Origin: Candidatus Omnitrophota bacterium
GTDB lineage: Bacteria > Omnitrophota > Gorgyraeia > Zapsychrales > Zapsychraceae
DNA: 64,000 bases
Assembly: GCA_020632515.1 (NCBI GenBank)
Contig: JACKFK010000004.1
Coordinates: 64,068-128,067 of the forward strand
Direction: 5' to 3'
The notes beneath the pieces were generated by a model. It did not search any database and had not been told where the DNA came from. It worked only from the letters and a program-made list of their open reading frames with translations. The translations under genes and the position numbers were made by a program. Positions 27,719 to 50,328 of the stretch are shown piece after piece; the stretch's first letter is position 1, and each line of letters opens with the position of its first letter.

Positions 27719-28981
27719 ATGGAAAAACTTGTTATTGAAGGCGGCAAATCTTTAAAAGGCGAGGTTTATATCAGCGGTTCTAAGAATTCCGCTTTGCCGA
27801 TTATGGCCGCCACATTGTTGACCGATGAACCATGTACTTTAGTTAATGTCCCGGCATTACGGGATACAAAAACTATGGGTAAGTTGTTGGTATCTTTAGG
27901 AAAAAAAGTAGAATTTAAGGACAATACTGTTGTTATATCGAATAGTGAAAAAATATCGCATATAGCTGAGTATGATTTGGTTTCTACCATGCGCGGATCT
28001 TTTTGTGTTTTAGGTCCTCTTCTTGCGAAACTAAATAAAGCAAAAGTTTCTCTGCCGGGAGGGTGTGTTATTGGGGTTCGTCCTGTTGATATTCATTTAA
28101 AAGGATTAAAGGCTCTGGGAGCTAAGATTGATATTGAAAATGGTTATGTTCTTGCGCATTGTAAACAATTAAAAGGAACGCAAATTTATTTGGGCGGGAT
28201 ATTTGGTTCTTCCGTATTGGCTACGGCGAATATTTTGATGGCGGCGGTATTAGCGCAAGGCAAAACGTATATTGAATCCGCGGCCTGTGAACCGGAAATT
28301 GAAGATTTAGCGAATATGTTAATCGCTATGGGTGCAGATATTCAAGGCCATGGAAGTCCGCGGATTGTGGTCAAGGGTGTCAAGAAACTGCGTGGCGTAA
28401 AATATCGGGTGATTCCCGACCGAATCGAAGCAGGAACCTATATCTTATTGGCAGCTGTAACAAACAGTGATATAACAATTAAAAATGCAGAGTATTCGCA
28501 TTTATTTTCATTGATTGATGCTTTGGCTCAAGTTGGCATCAAAGTAAAGAAAACGAAAACAGGAATGAAGATTATTAAAAAGCATAAATTGCAGCCAGTT
28601 AGTTTAACAACGTTACCTTATCCAGGTTTTCCAACGGATTTACAAGCGCAGTTTCTTACATTAATGGCGATGACGCCAGGGGTGAGTGTGATTACTGAGA
28701 AAGTTTATCCTGATCGGTTTATTCATATCGCGGAATTAAATCGTATGGGAGCTAATATCCGTCGGGAAGGTGCAAATTCTATTGTGCAGGGTGTGAAATC
28801 TCTAATAGGTGCGCCGGTGATGGCTTCGGATTTACGTGCTTCGGCAGCACTTGTTATGGCCGGATTAGCGGCCAAAGGTAAGACGGAGATTCACCGCATT
28901 TATCATCTCGAACGAGGGTATGAAAGTTTAGATGAAAAGCTTTTAGCGTTAGGCGCAAAGGTATATAGAGAAGATAATTAG
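27719..28981 (+). CDS. murA: UDP-N-acetylglucosamine 1-carboxyvinyltransferase
   Basis: ISGSKNSALPI, the active-site loop LPGGCVIG, GFPTDLQAQ and the C-terminal HLERGYE. Confidence 0.95.
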   Translation: MEKLVIEGGKSLKGEVYISGSKNSALPIMAATLLTDEPCTLVNVPALRDTKTMGKLLVSLGKKVEFKDNTVVISNSEKISHIAEYDLVSTMRGSFCVLGPLLAKLNKAKVSLPGGCVIGVRPVDIHLKGLKALGAKIDIENGYVLAHCKQLKGTQIYLGGIFGSSVLATANILMAAVLAQGKTYIESAACEPEIEDLANMLIAMGADIQGHGSPRIVVKGVKKLRGVKYRVIPDRIEAGTYILLAAVTNSDITIKNAEYSHLFSLIDALAQVGIKVKKTKTGMKIIKKHKLQPVSLTTLPYPGFPTDLQAQFLTLMAMTPGVSVITEKVYPDRFIHIAELNRMGANIRREGANSIVQGVKSLIGAPVMASDLRASAALVMAGLAAKGKTEIHRIYHLERGYESLDEKLLALGAKVYREDN

Positions 28982-32324: not shown

Positions 32325-32554
32325 AAGCCGATAAAGGTAAACCCGGAGAAATCCGGGGACACAAAACTACAGGCCTAAATTGTCTACGACCGGGAAGGCT
32401 CTTATAAAGAGCAGATAAAGACGATATGTAAGGTCAAGGGGCGATATGGTGGCTGAGTTGCCGAAGACTGGGCGTTCTATAACGTTCAAGACGTATCTTT
32501 ATGAGGGATACGCAGGTAAGGAGGGAGAAATCCTCTCTTTATCGGCTTTTTTTT
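32325..32554 (+). ncRNA. Structured small RNA of unassigned class (~230 nt), with its 5' and 3' ends paired and ending in a U8 tract
   Basis: AAGCCGAUAAAG (32325-36) pairs perfectly with CUUUAUCGGCUU (32537-48), followed by T8. Internal hairpins lie at 32342-57 (GAAA loop), 32398-412, 32450-63, 32472-85 and 32492-512. It has its own promoter and lies in a 470-bp noncoding gap. Confidence 0.5.
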
Positions 32555-32647: not shown

Positions 32648-32947
32648 ATGTCTGAGCATTTTATCCGTTTCTATAAAAAATTAAATCTTAGTGAAATTAC
32701 ATCGCAATTATTGATTTATGGTGATTTATCGGGCCATTGCGCGCATTGTCAAGCCATGGACATTGGGTTGGACAAAGAAAAATGTCCGCAATGCGGTTGT
32801 GTATTTCATTTTATTGCATTTCGTAATCCAAAATCCCATTTTCCTAAAATGCATAAATTAATCGAAACGCGCAATCTTAAGATTATTGATTATGACGATT
32901 ATAAACACGCAACAGCAGCCTCGAAAGCGCAGGATTTTTTGAAGTAA
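32648..32947 (+). CDS. Small Zn-ribbon protein (CxxC ... CxxC), function unknown
   Basis: HCAHCQ and CPQCGC cysteine pairs. No SD; an extended -10 (TGtTATAAT, 32630-38) sits 10 nt upstream of the ATG. Confidence 0.55.
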   Translation: MSEHFIRFYKKLNLSEITSQLLIYGDLSGHCAHCQAMDIGLDKEKCPQCGCVFHFIAFRNPKSHFPKMHKLIETRNLKIIDYDDYKHATAASKAQDFLK

Positions 32948-34180: not shown

Positions 34181-34540
34181 TTGCGTCTTTTCGTCGGGTA
34201 TGTCTTAATCGGTCTGACAATAGCTGTGCCCTATAAATTCTGCGGACATGCCGTTATCACGGATATGTACTATCAGAAATTCATTGACCCACTTAACAAT
34301 CTTCTTGGCGGACGGGCTGTGCATTCACTTGAGCATTATTTAAAAGTCGCGGATTTTAATATGATTAACGATTTATATTACTATTTATCTGACATTTATT
34401 TTCTTTGGAGCCATGAACTATTTAATGTTAGGCAGTCCTTTATCGCAGCGATAAATTGTGGGAAAGGATTAAGGGAGGGATTCTTTTTTTTCTGTTGGGT
34501 TTGTGCTCTATTTAATTTATTTGCGGTTATTTCAACTTGA
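34181..34540 (+). CDS. Hypothetical membrane protein; possibly the 5' portion of a gene split from 34503..35039 by a frameshift in a T8 run
   Basis: TTG start with no clear RBS. The reading frame changes at T8 (34484-34491). Confidence 0.3.
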   Translation: MRLFVGYVLIGLTIAVPYKFCGHAVITDMYYQKFIDPLNNLLGGRAVHSLEHYLKVADFNMINDLYYYLSDIYFLWSHELFNVRQSFIAAINCGKGLREGFFFFCWVCALFNLFAVIST

Positions 34541-35039
34541 GACTTATCATTACATTGTAGCATTTGAAGGAATTGTCGAGGATATTCAGGCTTGGATTTT
34601 TTATCTGACAGCGGTCGCGGCGGGAATTGTTTCGGTAAAATTATTTTTTACGAAGAAAACCATGTTTGCGTGGTTATATTCAGGCCTCGCGTTAGCTTTA
34701 TTTTTTGTGACAATGGAAGAAATCAGCTGGGGACAACGGTTCATTCCATATGATGCACCGGAAGTGATTTTAGATAAGAGTCTTCAAGGAGAGATGACGT
34801 TTCATAATCTTGATTCTGTTTTTTGGATGCTTAATTTTGTGCATATCACGGTTGGATTACTTGGTGTTTTTTTGATTTATCTGATCCTTAAGAATATTAA
34901 AATGCGGTTTCCAGATTTTATAAATTTGTTTATTCCTGGACGGCCGTTATTCTTTTATTTTATATTTCATTTTATTGTCTATTTTTGCAGTATGACAGAA
35001 ATAAAATTAGAGTTATTCTATGATTTTCGGGAAGAATAG
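34503..35039 (+). CDS. Hypothetical multi-pass membrane protein (EEISWGQR motif)
   Basis: Four to five hydrophobic segments. The GTG start lies 23 nt from the nearest SD-like sequence, so a fusion with the upstream ORF is plausible. Confidence 0.45.
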   Translation: MLYLIYLRLFQLETYHYIVAFEGIVEDIQAWIFYLTAVAAGIVSVKLFFTKKTMFAWLYSGLALALFFVTMEEISWGQRFIPYDAPEVILDKSLQGEMTFHNLDSVFWMLNFVHITVGLLGVFLIYLILKNIKMRFPDFINLFIPGRPLFFYFIFHFIVYFCSMTEIKLELFYDFREE

Positions 35040-35129
35040 AAAATTTTGGAATTATTTGTGGCCTTGGGTATTTTTTGGTTGATGATGTGGAATTTCTACC
35101 GAGAAAATATCAGAAAAGTGATTTAGAAA

Positions 35130-35160
35130 GGCCCGTCACTCTATTATTCAGCGACGGGCC
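35130..35160 (-). terminator. Hairpin terminator downstream of the histone-fold gene (possibly bidirectional)
   Basis: GGCCCGTC (35130-37) pairs with GACGGGCC (35153-60), an 8-bp GC-rich stem. A short T-run follows on the minus strand. Confidence 0.5.
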
Positions 35161-35167
35161 AGATATT

Positions 35168-35377
35168 TTAGGCAAGAATGTCATAAGGACGAATCGTCTT
35201 GCGTCCGTTTGCCGCGCACTTCTTTTGCGCTTGATCAACTAACCAATAAACATATTCGTTTAACGCGTCTAAAGTATCTGAAGAAACATTAAATGTTTCT
35301 TTTCCGCTTCCTTTAAGCGCTTCTTTTGTTTTTGAACCAACTAACAACATTTCTTTTGATTCTTTTTTCTTAGCCAT
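35168..35377 (-). CDS. Bacterial histone-fold protein (singlet histone, Bd0055/HBb- or DUF1931-like), 69 aa
   Basis: MAKKKESKEMLLVGSKTKEALK...NVSSDTLDALNEYVYWLVDQAQKKCAANGRKTIRPYDI follows a helix-loop-helix-loop-helix pattern ending in the GRKT.xxxDI signature. The ATG at 35377 has a GAAAGG RBS; the longer ORF reaching 35410 is less likely. Confidence 0.7.
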   Translation of the reverse strand: MAKKKESKEMLLVGSKTKEALKGSGKETFNVSSDTLDALNEYVYWLVDQAQKKCAANGRKTIRPYDILA

Positions 35378-35538
35378 ACTGTGCCTTTCTTTTGGATGCT
35401 TCCTCATCATCGAGGGGTTGGTATTAAGAAATCAATATTCAAATTCTATGAATTTTTTAATATTAGTCAAGAAAATTTAAAATTCGCTTATAATCTTTAT
35501 TCTTGATCCTTTAGAGAGAAAGGCATAATATAAAAATC

Positions 35539-35955
35539 ATGAAAATTAAAATCACGCAAAATTTTGTATTTCTGTTTTTTGTATTTAATATGGTGTTTAT
35601 TTCGTCCTTGGTCCGTGCTGATACAGTATCTGCAATTTCTGATATTGAAATCCAATTAGAAAAAGATGTTTTTAAGATTGGGGAGAAATTAGAAGGAAAG
35701 TTAAATGTCTTTAGTCATCGTCCGGCAGCTATTCCGGTTGTTTTAAAAATTAAAATTGTACACGATGATGAGCAAGTTTTTGATAGTATGCTGGCAGTAA
35801 AAATATTTCCCGGAAGTAATTATTATTCGCTTGAATTATTTAATCTTCCACCTTTATTTGTCGATGCTAACGCAGTTGGTTCCTGGGAGATATTTGCCGG
35901 AGGCCAAAGTTCTGATGGGTACCAAGCATTTAAGGAGTTCTCAGTTAAGAAGTAG
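35539..35955 (+). CDS. Hypothetical secreted protein
   Basis: Signal peptide (..SLVRA|D), predicted beta-rich; no family recognised. Confidence 0.5.
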   Translation: MKIKITQNFVFLFFVFNMVFISSLVRADTVSAISDIEIQLEKDVFKIGEKLEGKLNVFSHRPAAIPVVLKIKIVHDDEQVFDSMLAVKIFPGSNYYSLELFNLPPLFVDANAVGSWEIFAGGQSSDGYQAFKEFSVKK

Positions 35956-35956
35956 T

Positions 35957-37240
35957 TTAACCGTTCCAAAAAACAGATTTGAAAGGTTTAGGGATAAGAG
36001 TGGGCAGATTGAGTTGATTCAACCATGTGATAACCTGCGGTAAATCTTCCGGAATATAAACTTCGGTTTCAATCAATCCTTTGCATTTCGCATATTTAAT
36101 ATTCTGATATAAATCATCTGGGCTCTGGCAGGTTTCTTTATTAAGAAAAACTGCTTGTTTCGGTGCTTTCTCGTCAGGATAAAATAAAAATGGATTGTCG
36201 CTAAGAAATGTCCTTAAGGCTAAAGTATCTTTTAACGGGATAAGGCGAAAATATTCTTTTGGAAGTTTTTGCGGACGCGGTATGATTTCTGCTAATAAGC
36301 GCATTTTAAAACGGGTGAGCCCTTCACGGAAAAAGGGAGGCGTTCCTCCAAGGTTGACATTATGAAACCCCTTCTTTTTAAGTTCTACAATGGGGAAATA
36401 ATACAAAGAACCTAAAACTCCCTGTTTAAGATATTTGGAGTCGCCATCTTTAATCCCTACAACTCTTAATTGAGCATTCTGGCCGTCATATTCGATCATA
36501 CCTCCTCCGAGATTGGTGCCATTATTTTTTACCAGGAAAAAATCTGATCGATGAAAAATATCTTTGAGTTGCAAGTCTCCAATAAAGACGGCAGCTTGAT
36601 TATGACGGTTTAAGATAAAAGGCTTGTGCATGGTTTCATAAAATTGTTGAAATTGATTCCAACAGCGGCAAAATTCATGATGAAGGTGGTTTTTTCGGAT
36701 AAGTCGGGCTATATCGCTAAAGCCACTTTTACTTCTTCGATGTAATTCCGACATGGGCGGGGTGATATCAATACTCATGTACATCCAAAAGGGAATAGTG
36801 AAGCCGGGTAATGATTTAAAAAAAGAATGGCTGAATGTGTTTAATTCAAGATTCAGTAAAGCGCATTGAGGGTATTGTTTGGTTACAGTTTGGGGAATCT
36901 GCCAATAAAAATGTTGACCAATCGGTTTTTGGGAGTATCCCGACCGGAAAATCTTTTTTAGCCAATAAGCCCGGCGGGGCGTTTCGTGTCCAGCATAAGC
37001 GAAACAAAAGTCAAGGTCATTTCCAGCAAGTTGACCTTCATAGATTGTTACAGGTAAATAGATTTTTTTGGTAGTTTTAACCGAATGTAAAAATAATGGG
37101 ATTTTGTTGGATTTTCGCCAGGAAAGTGGAAGTTTGTGATGAAGATAGGCTAAGGAACGCTTCGTATTATTTGAAAGACTCATGATTTCTGTAAAAAAGC
37201 CTTTAATCTTTTTTAGTTTGTATAGATAAATCCTCAACAA
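35957..37240 (-). CDS. Hypothetical protein with a FemAB/CelD-like GNAT acyltransferase-type C-terminal half (tentative)
   Basis: The region LGGGMIEYDG..LRVVGIKDG...KQGVLGSLYYFPI..KKKGF..VNLGG resembles the GNAT (Acetyltransf_6-like) core. The start is uncertain (TTG at 37240 or ATG at 37183). Confidence 0.45.
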   Translation of the reverse strand: MLRIYLYKLKKIKGFFTEIMSLSNNTKRSLAYLHHKLPLSWRKSNKIPLFLHSVKTTKKIYLPVTIYEGQLAGNDLDFCFAYAGHETPRRAYWLKKIFRSGYSQKPIGQHFYWQIPQTVTKQYPQCALLNLELNTFSHSFFKSLPGFTIPFWMYMSIDITPPMSELHRRSKSGFSDIARLIRKNHLHHEFCRCWNQFQQFYETMHKPFILNRHNQAAVFIGDLQLKDIFHRSDFFLVKNNGTNLGGGMIEYDGQNAQLRVVGIKDGDSKYLKQGVLGSLYYFPIVELKKKGFHNVNLGGTPPFFREGLTRFKMRLLAEIIPRPQKLPKEYFRLIPLKDTLALRTFLSDNPFLFYPDEKAPKQAVFLNKETCQSPDDLYQNIKYAKCKGLIETEVYIPEDLPQVITWLNQLNLPTLIPKPFKSVFWNG

Positions 37241-37830: not shown

Positions 37831-39879
37831 TTGATGAGTTTGCTATTAAATACCATCCGCGTTGCTTCTCGCTCCAGCCAATTAGCTTGTCTTCAAGTCA
37901 ATGAGATCCATGCTCAGCTTAAAGAAAAGGGAGTGTCTTTAGAATTTGAGCGGAGTACTTATCAAACGCAAGGAGATCTAGATAAGAAGATTTCTTTGAC
38001 GGAAAATCTTCCTGATAATTTCTTTACAGATGCTCTTGACCAGGCTTTGATCAATTGCGAAGTGGATATTGTTGTTCATAGTGCTAAGGATCTTCCTAAG
38101 ATTTTGCATAAAGATCTGGACGTTTTCGCTTTGACAAAGACCTTTGATGCCACTGACGCGTTTGTGGGGCTGATGCCATTTGAACAATTAAAACCAGGCG
38201 CGAGAATTGGAACCAGCAGTCTTATTCGTCAAGAATCCATTAAGAAATTAAATCCTAATCTTCAGCTTGTTGATATCCGCGGGACTATTGAAGAGCGAAT
38301 AAACCTTATTGAACAAGGTATCTGTGATGGCATTATTGTCGCGACATGCGCGCTGAAACGGCTTGGATTAGCGGATAAGATTCAGAGTATCATGCCATGG
38401 GAGGCTTCGCCAATGCAGGGGCAGTTAGCCATAGTTGGACGGTGTGGAGATTTGCACTTAAAGAATTTGTTTAAGAGTATTGATGCTCGGCAAAAATATG
38501 GAAAAATTTTTCTTGTGGGTGCAGGGCCAGGCGATCCGGATTTAATTACACAAAAGGGGATTAATGTTCTTAAGCAAGCTGATTGTGTTTTTTATGATTT
38601 TCTTGCGCATAATGATTTATTGAATTATGCGCCGCAGGCAGAAAAGATTTACGTCGGTAAACGTAAAGGGCTTCATTCTTTAGCGCAATCGGAATTAAAT
38701 AGACAATTAAAAAATAAAGTATTGGATGGAAAAAATGTAATTCGCCTAAAAGGCGGTGATCCTTTGATTTTTGGCAGAGGTGCCGAGGAGATAGAGTATT
38801 TGCGTTCTTTTATGATTGATGTCCAGGTTATTCCCGGGGTTAGTTCCGCGACCGCGATTCCAACTGCGTTAGGCGTTCCGCTAACAGATCGTAATCTGGC
38901 CTCTTCAGTCGCATTTATTAGTGCGCATCAAAAAGAGGAGGATCCAGCAGCGGCCAAAAAACTATTATTGCCCCAAGCGGATACATTAGTTTTTTTGATG
39001 GGGCTTACAAAGATAAAAGAAATTGTTCAGGCACTGAAAACGCAAGCATGGCCGGATTCGACGCCTGTGATGGTTATTTCCAGAGGAACTACGGAAGATC
39101 AACAAATTGTGACAGGGACTCTCCAGACAATTGTTGCACAGTTAGATAAGCAAGCTCTCCCACCGCCAGCATTAATTATCGTTGGTCAAACAATATCTTT
39201 TTTTAATCAATCGCGTTATCAAGTACCTGCAATTTTATATACAGGAACGAATCCGGAACAATATCAATATCTCGGAAAAGTGATTCATTTTCCTATGATT
39301 CAGATTCAAGGAATTCAATTTAGTGAAGAAGAACAGCAGAAGTGGATAAAAACATTGCATCATTTTCAGCTGATTCTTTTAACAAGTCGATTTGCAGTAA
39401 AATATTTCATGAACCTTATTGGAAATGATTTGAATATTTTAAAACCTTTAAAATTTGCTTGTATCGGTCGGGAAACAGCTTTAACGCTGCGGAAATTTTC
39501 TATAACTCCTGAGTGTACGGCCAAAGAAGAATACAGCGAAGGTTTTCTAAAAGAGTTGGATAGACAATTTTCATTGTCAGGGATGCGTATTTTATTTCCA
39601 CGATCATCTTTACCCAACCCTTTTCTAAAGGAAGAGCTAGAGAAAAAAGGGGCGCAGGTTGAATTATTGGCGGTTTATAAAAATGAAAAGATCGAAAAAA
39701 GAGACTTGCCAAAAGTTGCTATTGATAATATCGTATTTACGAGCCCTTCGACCGTGAAGAACTTTTTAGACGATTATAAGTCTATTCCTCGAGAATGGAA
39801 AGTTTGGTCTAAGGGGCCCGTCACTAGCCAGTATTTAAAAGAAGTGGGTTATGAAAATCAACAGTTATCATTTATTTAG
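37831..39879 (+). CDS. Triple fusion: HemC-like (domains 1-2 only) / uroporphyrinogen-III C-methyltransferase (CobA/SUMT) / uroporphyrinogen-III synthase (HemD)
   Basis: The N-terminal ~220 aa resemble porphobilinogen deaminase (VASRSSQLA, DIVVHSAKDLP, IGTSSLIRQ, RGTIEERI). The middle is SUMT (VGAGPGDPDLIT, GGDPLIFGRG, VIPGVSS). The C-terminal ~200 aa are a HEM4 domain (LLTSRFAV, IGRETA, VFTSPSTV). Confidence 0.85.
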   Translation: MMSLLLNTIRVASRSSQLACLQVNEIHAQLKEKGVSLEFERSTYQTQGDLDKKISLTENLPDNFFTDALDQALINCEVDIVVHSAKDLPKILHKDLDVFALTKTFDATDAFVGLMPFEQLKPGARIGTSSLIRQESIKKLNPNLQLVDIRGTIEERINLIEQGICDGIIVATCALKRLGLADKIQSIMPWEASPMQGQLAIVGRCGDLHLKNLFKSIDARQKYGKIFLVGAGPGDPDLITQKGINVLKQADCVFYDFLAHNDLLNYAPQAEKIYVGKRKGLHSLAQSELNRQLKNKVLDGKNVIRLKGGDPLIFGRGAEEIEYLRSFMIDVQVIPGVSSATAIPTALGVPLTDRNLASSVAFISAHQKEEDPAAAKKLLLPQADTLVFLMGLTKIKEIVQALKTQAWPDSTPVMVISRGTTEDQQIVTGTLQTIVAQLDKQALPPPALIIVGQTISFFNQSRYQVPAILYTGTNPEQYQYLGKVIHFPMIQIQGIQFSEEEQQKWIKTLHHFQLILLTSRFAVKYFMNLIGNDLNILKPLKFACIGRETALTLRKFSITPECTAKEEYSEGFLKELDRQFSLSGMRILFPRSSLPNPFLKEELEKKGAQVELLAVYKNEKIEKRDLPKVAIDNIVFTSPSTVKNFLDDYKSIPREWKVWSKGPVTSQYLKEVGYENQQLSFI

Positions 39880-48838: not shown

Positions 48839-50203
48839 TTATTCTTTCCTTAAATTTGACGGCAGGATATGTAATGCTTGACGGTATTTACTAACAGTGC
48901 GTCGAGCAACTTTAAATCCTTTTCTTTCAAAAAGATTTTGAATATCTTGATCAGAAAGAGGGTGAGATTTATCCTCTTCCGCGATAATTGAACGAATTTC
49001 TTCTTTAATGCTATGAGATGAAATTGATTCCTCGCCTTCTTGATTAATCCCCTGGGTAAAAAAGAATTTCATTGGCAAGAGTCCTTGTGGGGTTTCCATA
49101 TATTTGTTATTAATGGCCCGACAAACTGTGGATTCATTACGGGAAATCACTTGAGCGATATCTTTAAGAATCATAGGTTTTAAGGCTGCAGATCCTTGAT
49201 CAAAGAAGTCTTTTTGATATTTCACAATATATTGGGCAATTTGGTAAATCGTTTGATTGCGTTGATCAATGCTTTTAATAAAAGTCAGCGCGTTTTTAAT
49301 TTTCTCTTTGATAAATTCCTTTTCTTCGGCGGAACGATTGTTTTGTTTAAGCATTGTTTGATAAAAATGACTGATACGTAAACAAGGGATAGTGTCTTGA
49401 TTGATAACGACTTGGTATTGATCATTATTATCTTTAACAATATAGACATCGGGTTTAATGTAAATATTTTCGTTTACTGGTCGATAACTTCTGGCAGGTT
49501 TTGGTTCTAAAGTTGCTATAACGTGCGCGAGATGTTGAATTTTTTCCTGCGATATTTTTAAAGCTTTGGCAATATCAGCGTATTTTTTACGGCCTAATTC
49601 ATTGAAATGATTTGTTATGATTTCCCGCAGTAATTCTGTATCTTGATAGATTTTATAGTGAATTTGTATGAGTAAACATTCCGTTAAATCTCGTGAGGCA
49701 ATGCCTAATGGTTCGAAATTTTGTATGGTTAAGAGTATTTCTTCTACTAATTTAACATTATCTGTTCCTGCTAAGGCGGCAATTTCTTTGCAGCTGCAAT
49801 GAAAGTAGCCGTCTTCATTTAAATTGCCAATAATTAATTCGCCTATTTTAATCTCTAAAGGATTGGTAACCTCTAAGTGAAGCTGCTGAAGTAGATAGTC
49901 TTCAAGAGGGGTAAATTCTGCGATGGGCTTTTCTTCATACTCCTCCTCATTCTGGAAATATGAGGGGGTAAGCAGGGAATTATCCTCCTGGTTCTTTAAT
50001 TTAGATTGAAGAATTTCTTCAAATTGATCATGATCATTGGTGCTGCTTTTTTCATCAATTTCTAGAAGCGGATTATTCTGTAATTCCAGCTCAATAGCAG
50101 TATTGAGTTCTTCTATAGGTAAAAGAAGGACTTCAATAGATTGTTGCATATGAGGCGCTAAGACCGTCTTTTGGATTTGGCTGGGATTGAGTTTAATTTT
50201 CAT
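48839..50203 (-). CDS. rpoN: RNA polymerase sigma-54 factor
   Basis: N-terminal Gln/Leu-rich region I (QQSIEVLLLP..EL...IE.EL..NP.LE), core-binding domain, HTH, and the RpoN box ARRTVSKYR. The ATG at 50203 matches where the homology starts. Confidence 0.93.
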   Translation of the reverse strand: MKIKLNPSQIQKTVLAPHMQQSIEVLLLPIEELNTAIELELQNNPLLEIDEKSSTNDHDQFEEILQSKLKNQEDNSLLTPSYFQNEEEYEEKPIAEFTPLEDYLLQQLHLEVTNPLEIKIGELIIGNLNEDGYFHCSCKEIAALAGTDNVKLVEEILLTIQNFEPLGIASRDLTECLLIQIHYKIYQDTELLREIITNHFNELGRKKYADIAKALKISQEKIQHLAHVIATLEPKPARSYRPVNENIYIKPDVYIVKDNNDQYQVVINQDTIPCLRISHFYQTMLKQNNRSAEEKEFIKEKIKNALTFIKSIDQRNQTIYQIAQYIVKYQKDFFDQGSAALKPMILKDIAQVISRNESTVCRAINNKYMETPQGLLPMKFFFTQGINQEGEESISSHSIKEEIRSIIAEEDKSHPLSDQDIQNLFERKGFKVARRTVSKYRQALHILPSNLRKE

Positions 50204-50328
50204 ATTAGCAAGTATACCATAATTTAAAATATACAACAATTATATTTATAGTGAAGGACAAGTTTTGTAACTTGTTGAAATATAAAGGGGTTTTAGTTAT
50301 GTCGCACAACAAAAAGTGTTGATAAAAT

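Follow-up and report, generated by a model that had tools for sequence, protein, structure and literature searches.

What kind of chromatin protein is encoded by a short, free-standing gene in an Omnitrophota bacterium, and would it wrap DNA or bend it? The gene occupies positions 35168..35377 (minus strand) of a 64,000-nucleotide stretch of DNA (hereafter the window), which was taken from contig JACKFK010000004.1 of the Candidatus Omnitrophota bacterium assembly GCA_020632515.1 (positions 64,068 to 128,067 of the forward strand). Its product of 69 amino acids (aa) is an exact match to the open reading frame (ORF) quoted in a preliminary description of the locus, which had seen in it a singlet bacterial histone resembling Bdellovibrio Bd0055 (HBb). 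To our knowledge, it was only in 2023-2025 that bacterial histones came to be accepted as real chromatin proteins, and HBb and HLp are the only ones that have been experimentally characterised. We consider it probable that the gene encodes a nucleoid-associated, α3-truncated histone of the bacterial face-to-face (FtF) subgroup.

The gene and the signals around it, all on the minus strand, are as follows.

35168..35377, minus strand: histone coding sequence, stop included, with ATG at 35377 and TAA at 35170..35168; 69 aa, molecular weight 7.7 kDa, pI 9.3
35351..35377, minus strand: N-terminal Lys-rich tail MAKKKESKE (residues 1-9), predicted disordered (predicted local distance difference test score, pLDDT, <50 for residues 1-4 and mean 62 for residues 1-10)
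35171..35350, minus strand: histone fold (residues 10-69), with AlphaFold2 helices α1 at residues 14-22, α2 at 35-56 and a truncated α3 at 64-68
35384..35389, minus strand: GAAAGG, a Shine-Dalgarno-like motif 6 nt ahead of the ATG at 35377, read from the sequence
35443..35470, minus strand: sigma-70-like promoter TTGACT-16 nt-TAGAAT, matching 10 of 12 consensus positions, its -10 hexamer ending 65 nt before the start codon
35130..35160, minus strand: intrinsic-terminator-like hairpin with an 11-bp GC-rich stem and a 9-nt loop, followed by UUUCU at 35125..35129
35408..35410, minus strand: in-frame ATG further upstream, from which the product would have 80 aa; no Shine-Dalgarno sequence ahead of it, probably unused

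The ATG at 35377 is taken as the start because GAAAGG lies 6 nt ahead of it and because an N-terminus of the form MAK(K/G)K is found in nearly all homologues. The span first assigned to the locus (35130-35410) is right at its lower end, which is the end of the terminator hairpin, and wrong at its upper end, which is the unused upstream ATG. Homologues have nothing that corresponds to the 11 residues gained by starting at 35410, and this start is used by only one automatic Logan gene call. The GenBank model (MCA9408973.1, MCB9746918.1) is a 60-aa “hypothetical protein H6755_00755” that begins at the internal Met10 (35168..35350). Because the MAKKK N-terminus is conserved, and because of the position of the ribosome-binding site (RBS), we judge this start to lie 27 nt too far downstream, which shows the GenBank record to lack the predicted Lys-rich tail as well as a functional name. 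The protein of a sibling metagenome-assembled genome (MAG) has been named “DUF1931 domain-containing protein” by NCBI, and several relatives have been named “histone H3/H4” by JGI.

The locus had been described as a lone minus-strand gene with its own RBS and a GC-rich hairpin terminator, and this is borne out by GAAAGG, by the 11-bp stem, and by flanking genes that lie on the opposite strand on both sides, because of which the gene is regarded as monocistronic. The terminator hairpin has a folding free energy (dG) of -22.6 kcal/mol (z -4.8), and a fold as good was seen in 0 of 200 shuffles. The promoter scan of the region returned four sites of such quality, and shuffled sequence a mean of 3.0; as these numbers are much alike, a single promoter match proves little. 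The histone promoter is nonetheless supported, because TTGAC(G/T) promoters recur in related loci: most of about 20 such loci have one, with the -10 hexamer ending 43-48 nt before the start codon. About 20 related loci have an AAAGGA RBS motif in the equivalent place, and a hairpin with a T-run is found at the same position in related loci.

Is the ORF real, and does it belong to this genome? When the family profile was searched against the six-frame translation of the window, the histone ORF was recovered at E = 1e-46 and nothing else below E = 0.09; the 64-kb window thus holds no second histone by this profile. Homologous sequences form 739 clusters at 90% identity, and the ORF is genuine and not a chance ORF. 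In comparison with 12 relatives, synonymous sites are saturated (proportion of synonymous differences, pS, 0.63-0.98), while nonsynonymous divergence (dN) is 0.03-0.11 and dN/dS is <0.07, which indicates extreme purifying selection on what appears to be an old gene. Such selection fits a putative abundant architectural chromatin protein in an Omnitrophota bacterium. The gene has a GC content of 36.7% and a third-position GC content (GC3) of 30%, compared with window gene means of 37.2% and 31.4%, and the local composition profile around it is flat and without anomaly. Recent horizontal transfer was considered and is ruled out by GC and GC3 equal to the window means, the flat composition and the saturated synonymous sites. 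A phage origin was also rejected, as a Foldseek search of BFVD returned no match at E ≤0.001 and the histone neighbourhood contains no mobile-element genes.

One might suspect that the ORF is spurious or in decay, or that the contig is a contaminant that was wrongly binned, given that GenBank has just a 60-aa hypothetical protein and that the curated thresholds of Pfam and NCBIfam are not reached. Such an explanation would have to accommodate an intact ORF under strong purifying selection, the GC, GC3 and unremarkable composition given above, an Omnitrophota-type MurA on the same 256,068-bp contig only eight protein accession numbers away, and the same gene on other Omnitrophota-labelled contigs of 1.2 and 2.0 Mb; we regard it as effectively refuted. 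The window MurA (27719..28981) is 100% identical to MCA9408329.1 and MCB9746910.1, which are labelled Candidatus Omnitrophica/Omnitrophota, and the other named matches at 69-75% identity are nearly all from Omnitrophota and come from several submitters. The exceptions are one Lysobacterales-labelled MAG, a label that also occurs among the histone matches, and one unclassified hydrothermal-vent metagenome protein.

What fold does the protein adopt? The α3-truncated histones have three helices: α3 comprises only 3-5 residues, and α2 does not reach the length that it has in nucleosomal histones (Schwab et al., 2024; PMC11390915). A single-chain AlphaFold2 model, built on a 48-sequence family alignment, has a mean pLDDT of 88.1 and disordered first residues, with 22 residues in α2 and 5 in α3; on this model, the window protein is an α3-truncated prokaryotic histone. 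In a Foldseek search of the PDB, the solved α3 histones HLp, HBb and HTkC take the first nine places, and the later matches are all NF-Y subunits or other histone-fold proteins. HLp (9qt1/9qt0) is ranked first, with a template modelling (TM) score of 0.89, an rmsd (root-mean-square deviation) of 1.3-1.4 Å and 44% identity. Next comes HBb at TM 0.80-0.84 (rmsd 1.9-2.0 Å, 34% identity) and then HTkC at TM 0.86-0.87 (rmsd 1.8 Å, 40% identity), while the archaeal nucleosomal HMfB (1a7w) appears only at rank 46 with TM 0.55. The structural likeness to HBb that had been anticipated is therefore present in the model, but HLp is closer.

Sequence searches gave a comparable list of relatives. With phmmer against PDB sequences, HLp (9QT0) is matched at E = 4.6e-9 (39 bits), HBb/Bd0055 (8CMP, 8FVX) at E ~6e-5 (26 bits) and HTkC (9F2C) at 2e-4, while the 48-sequence family profile scores HLp at 61.9 bits (E = 3.9e-16), HBb at 34.9 and HTkC at 34.0. 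The phmmer matches to HLp and HBb, the AlphaFold2 model and the Foldseek results all uphold the earlier assignment to the singlet bacterial histone fold, in the group that contains Bd0055/HBb. The RxTxxxxD motif is present as R59-K-T61-I-R-P-Y-D66; across the family its R59 and D66 never vary and its T61 shows at least 90% conservation. The columns that are invariant or nearly so are K16, K18, K22, N57, G58, R59, K60, T61, R63 and D66.

Curated family models give lower scores. Pfam CBFD_NFYB_HMF (PF00808) reaches 17.9 bits against a gathering score of 21.4 (E 0.004), Pfam DUF1931 (PF09123) 13.3 bits against 21.8 (E 0.1), and the NCBIfam archaeal histone model NF043032 14.1 bits against a cut-off of 50, the α3 helix having just 5 residues; none of the three is passed. 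The two Pfam families had been proposed as a check on the histone assignment. CBFD_NFYB_HMF matches 31 of 48 relatives at E <0.01 (best E 2.5e-5), and its score is read as a true though sub-threshold superfamily signal. DUF1931, which matches only 4 of 48 family members at E <0.01, is not a family to which the protein belongs: its members, such as Aquifex Aq_328, are pseudodimeric doublets, whereas the window protein is a singlet of 69 aa. The two share a remote histone fold, and the depositors of 9QT0 used the DUF1931 name.

To which subgroup would the protein belong? The α3 histones comprise two main groups, FtF and “bacterial dimer” (Schwab et al., 2024; PMC11390915). FtF histones are predicted to be ring-shaped tetramers and, in bacteria, are found mainly in Spirochaetota, Planctomycetota, Myxococcota and the Bdellovibrionota class Bacteriovoracia (PMC11390915). 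Bacterial dimer histones are of the HBb type, occur in the class Bdellovibrionia among others, and lack two residues of the FtF interface, R48 and N52 (numbered as in the FtF hidden Markov model, HMM; PMC11390915). HLp is a stable tetramer that wraps ~60 bp of DNA; its interface residues are R49, S52, N53, R55, T61 and F63, with R49 in a hydrogen-bond network that includes the last residue, F63, and its DNA contacts are S14, K15, K17 and K21 (Hu et al., 2025; PMC12701072). In HTkC, R45 contacts the C-terminal carboxylate of the opposing dimer, and the R45A substitution converts the tetramer into a dimer (bioRxiv 10.64898/2025.12.06.692711). Both HLp and HTkC are DNA-wrapping tetramers that are highly expressed or essential (PMC12701072; 10.64898/2025.12.06.692711). 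The phmmer and profile alignments, taken together with PMC12701072, map these residues onto the window protein as follows.

K53 in the window protein: R48 of the FtF HMM, HLp R49 and HTkC R45, the interface Arg that is critical for the tetramer
N57 in the window protein: N52 of the FtF HMM and HLp N53, the interface Asn
R59-D66 in the window protein: HLp R55-D62, the R-D clamp
S15, K16, K18 and K22 in the window protein: HLp S14, K15, K17 and K21, the DNA contacts

Position 57 is Asn in all 119 close and all 134 distant relatives, and Asp in HBb. Position 53 is Lys in 61 and Arg in 58 of the close relatives, Arg in 130 of 134 distant relatives, and Ser in HBb. Among the singlet representatives at 50% identity, 95 of 113 score best against HLp rather than HBb or HTkC. 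The proposal that the protein is closest to HBb does not survive these comparisons: HLp is nearer by profile (61.9 versus 34.9 bits), by Foldseek and at K53 and N57. By sequence, the protein falls outside the HBb-type dimer class, HBb being the weaker match in phmmer, profile and Foldseek searches alike, with Ser and Asp where the window protein has K53 and N57. We take HLp as the nearest characterised relative and file the protein with the bacterial FtF histones, a placement made here by profile scores and nearest-structure counts. By analogy, we infer a ring tetramer for the window protein.

The codon of K53 lies at 35219..35221 (minus strand). The near-even Lys/Arg split at this position could mark a divide between tetramer and dimer within the subfamily.

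Several points weigh against assignment to a wrapping FtF histone. K53 keeps the charge but places Lys at the position whose Arg HTkC needs for its tetramer; the C-terminus (..YDILA) runs two residues past those of HLp and HTkC, which may alter the geometry of the contact; and the HLp interface residues S52, T61 and F63 are not conserved, being A56, Y65 and I67 here. The Pfam and NCBIfam histone models remain below their curated thresholds. The window covers 64 kb of the genome, and HU, IHF or other histones may exist elsewhere.

Could the protein, then, behave as HBb does, staying a dimer that bends DNA or coats it end-on and does not wrap it? K53 stands in place of the very Arg whose loss turns HTkC into a dimer, although Lys can still form a salt bridge with the carboxylate, and the C-terminus extends two residues beyond those of the proven tetramers. 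The matches to HBb are significant in sequence (E ~6e-5) and in fold (TM 0.80-0.84), but the family profile prefers HLp by 27 bits. HBb and the window protein have the GRKT...D motif and the α1 lysines in common; N57, however, does not vary, and close relatives have only Lys or Arg at position 53; the HBb residues at these two positions are Asp and Ser respectively. The Bacteriovoracia histones were, moreover, put in FtF, and the dimer histones in the class Bdellovibrionia (Schwab et al., 2024). We regard an HBb-like dimer as unlikely, though as the main alternative and one that deserves to be taken seriously.

An FtF histone is thus retained as the probable identity of the protein, and the characterised and catalogued relatives give some measure of how close the correspondence is. 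HLp, from Leptospira perolatii (PDB 9QT0/9QT1/9QT2; PMC12701072), is both the best sequence match and the best fold match. It is likewise a singlet of ~65 aa with a short basic tail, a truncated α3, the R-D clamp and the interface Asn, and its α1 DNA-contact residues (S, K, K, K) are conserved in the window protein. In addition to the interface substitutions above, the window protein differs from HLp by a 3-residue insertion (GKET) in loop L1, and the Leptospira SMC/MAP/DUF350 neighbourhood is absent around the window gene. The host of HLp belongs to Spirochaetota and that of the window protein to Omnitrophota. HBb (Bdellovibrio bacteriovorus; PDB 8CMP, 8FVX, 9EZZ) is also an α3-truncated singlet, but it shares only 34% identity with the window protein, is strictly a dimer and bends DNA. 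HTkC (Thermococcus kodakarensis; PDB 9F2C) is an archaeal member of the same FtF group and a proven DNA-wrapping ring tetramer; it has no tail, carries Arg (R45) at the K53 position and Glu at the N57 position, and belongs to the archaeal cluster.

The FtF-type histones of Bacteriovoracia (Bacteriovorax sp. DB6_IX, BSW11_IV and Seq25_V; Halobacteriovorax marinus) have folds that are 87-94% identical to that of the window protein and an identical C-terminus, ...QAQK(K/R)C.ANGRKTIRPYDILA, and their genes are likewise free-standing, with a TTGAC(G/T) promoter ahead and a terminator hairpin behind. They differ in their tails, which are usually long (up to 35 residues), H1-like and of the AKKA/TKKA type, compared with 9 residues in the window protein, as well as in their phylum label, and they have no synteny in common with the window. 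Hocher et al. (2023; supplementary table) list family members from Halobacteriovorax and Bacteriovorax, and Bacteriovoracia also feature in Schwab et al. (2024). The supplementary files of Schwab et al. (2024) contain no text mention of Omnitrophota or Bacteriovoracia, and individual Bacteriovoracia accessions are taken here as presumptive FtF members.

How might such a protein act? Judging from the fold, two monomers would pair head to tail through their long α2 helices, in the manner of all histone-fold dimers. A ring may then be closed by two such dimers that meet at the C-terminal end of α2, loop L2 and the short α3, with K53, N57, R59, Y65 and I67 as putative ring contacts. By homology to HLp and HTkC, ~50-60 bp of DNA would be wrapped round the ring without sequence preference. 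The putative DNA contacts are the N-cap and lysines of α1 (S15, K16, K18, K22) and the L1/L2 bridge (K60, T61), while the R59-D66 clamp would hold L2 and the short Lys-rich tail may add electrostatic contacts. Signals in the DNA suggest that the gene is expressed on its own, from a near-consensus promoter and with its own RBS and hairpin terminator, and homology suggests that the product serves as an abundant nucleoid protein.

A protein with the histone fold need not organise chromatin globally; it could instead regulate by binding DNA, at low abundance or under particular conditions, or act as the partner of another protein. Its neighbours are uncharacterised ORFs, and HTkC is itself secondary in its own host, where it is expressed 34 times lower than HTkA (PMC11390915). 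Against this reading, flanking-ORF clustering found no conserved operon partner across 80 loci, and the gene stands free, with a predicted strong promoter and a terminator. The dN/dS of <0.07 extends across two phyla and is typical of abundant structural proteins, and the characterised relatives bind DNA without sequence preference. We consider such a non-architectural role to be highly improbable. The earlier observation that no HU or IHF gene is visible also holds, as tblastn with E. coli HupA and IhfA and B. subtilis Hbsu returned nothing below E = 1 in the 64-kb window.

IHF-related histones are the only histone category that Schwab et al. (2024; PMC11390915) name for Omnitrophota. This category was considered for the window protein and rejected: the gene is monocistronic, no IHF/HU homologue is present in the window, and the protein ends 3 residues past D66. 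A 113-aa Omnitrophica histone-fold protein (Hocher et al., 2023), which may be an IHF-related histone, has no similarity to the window protein (E = 0.26).

Where else is this histone found? The family is small, with only 162 representatives (50% identity) of 1.84 billion matching at E ≤0.001. Among GTDB species genomes, the closest relatives belong to Bacteriovoracaceae and Halobacteriovoraceae, including the cultured Bacteriovorax sp. DB6_IX (94%) and BSW11_IV and strains of Halobacteriovorax. Approximately 10 Omnitrophota-labelled MAGs carry the histone gene, on contigs of up to 2.0 Mb. In a neighbour-joining (NJ) tree of the 60-residue core, the Omnitrophota sequences are interleaved with those of Bacteriovoracia and form no single clade; an alignment of this length cannot settle the order of transfers, and the tree was used only for the absence of one clean Omnitrophota clade. 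When all long ORFs of the window were compared by tblastn with 80 related loci, no neighbour proved to be shared. By flanking-ORF clustering, several neighbourhoods are conserved within Bacteriovoracia, and none of these is shared with the window or with most Omnitrophota loci.

The 120 MurA matches listed are all at least 69% identical to the window MurA and none is labelled Bacteriovoracia, compared with 87-94% identity for the histone across phyla. Bacteriovoracia tails rich in Ala, Lys and Thr resemble linker-histone tails (loci L003, L022, L028, L031, L052, L053 and others; proteins P0024, P0027, P0096, P0102 and P0117), and one relative weakly matches Pfam HC2 (H1-like nucleoprotein). 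The Omnitrophota versions have short tails of the MAKGK type, and basic tails range from 1 to 35 residues across homologues. Bacteriovorax sp. MedPE-SWde encodes both an HBb-type histone (OIQ17229.1) and an FtF-type histone (L052), and some Bacteriovoracia hold both subfamilies (Hocher et al., 2023; supplementary file 3). Natural doublets of ~118-130 aa, with two histone folds per chain, are also found among the 50% representatives (P0242-P0247, P0251, P0254 and others), and a similar doublet fusion has been reported for Bacteriovorax sp. ICPB 3264 (PMC11789641).

The histone gene lies within a run of five ORFs without a Pfam or NCBIfam match (34181..37240), the other members of which are as follows.

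34181..34540 and 34503..35039: probable membrane proteins, no Pfam/NCBIfam match
35539..35955: 138-aa protein with a signal-peptide-like N-terminus, no Pfam/NCBIfam match
35957..37240, minus strand: 427-aa ORF, no Pfam/NCBIfam match

The plus strand holds 57 of the 60 long ORFs of the window, and GC skew is positive over 30-42 kb. The only minus-strand genes are the histone gene, the 427-aa ORF and rpoN (48839..50239), and a presumably well-expressed histone gene therefore runs counter to the prevailing gene direction. The Rfam scan at gathering thresholds found no RNA element at the histone locus, its only match being a c-di-GMP-I-GGC riboswitch (RF03167) 2.7 kb away, at 32327..32466 on the plus strand (61.5 bits, E = 4e-12). 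The riboswitch is located ~180 nt upstream of a 99-aa Cys-rich CxxC ORF (32648..32947, plus strand), which has no Pfam or NCBIfam match. A 682-aa ORF (37831..39879, plus strand) fuses HemC (porphobilinogen deaminase), a TP_methylase tetrapyrrole methylase and HemD (uroporphyrinogen-III synthase).

What might the histone mean for its hosts? Members of the phylum Omnitrophota are very small bacteria and are often predatory or dependent on a host. The comparisons point to a histone that is old and strongly constrained, for which an ancient transfer between the two phyla is one possible route. It is a tentative and rather doubtful suggestion that some Omnitrophota use an FtF histone as their main chromatin protein, nearly unchanged from that of the predatory Bacteriovoracia, through ancient exchange and constraint as strong as that on eukaryotic H4. 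A shared lifestyle that depends on nucleoid compaction could link the histones of Omnitrophota and Bacteriovoracia, and it is possible that the K53 variants form an oligomer different from that of HLp.

The window protein is a further, under-annotated member of a recently described family and no new kind of protein, and the current picture of bacterial histones is unchanged by it. A GenBank “hypothetical protein” nevertheless gains a name and a corrected start codon, and the HLp-like (FtF) family is seen to be present in Omnitrophota-labelled genomes, a phylum that the literature searched names only for IHF-related histones. With its near-even split between Lys and Arg at the residue that is essential in HTkC, the family would offer a natural test case for dimer versus tetramer formation, and for the bending versus the wrapping of DNA.

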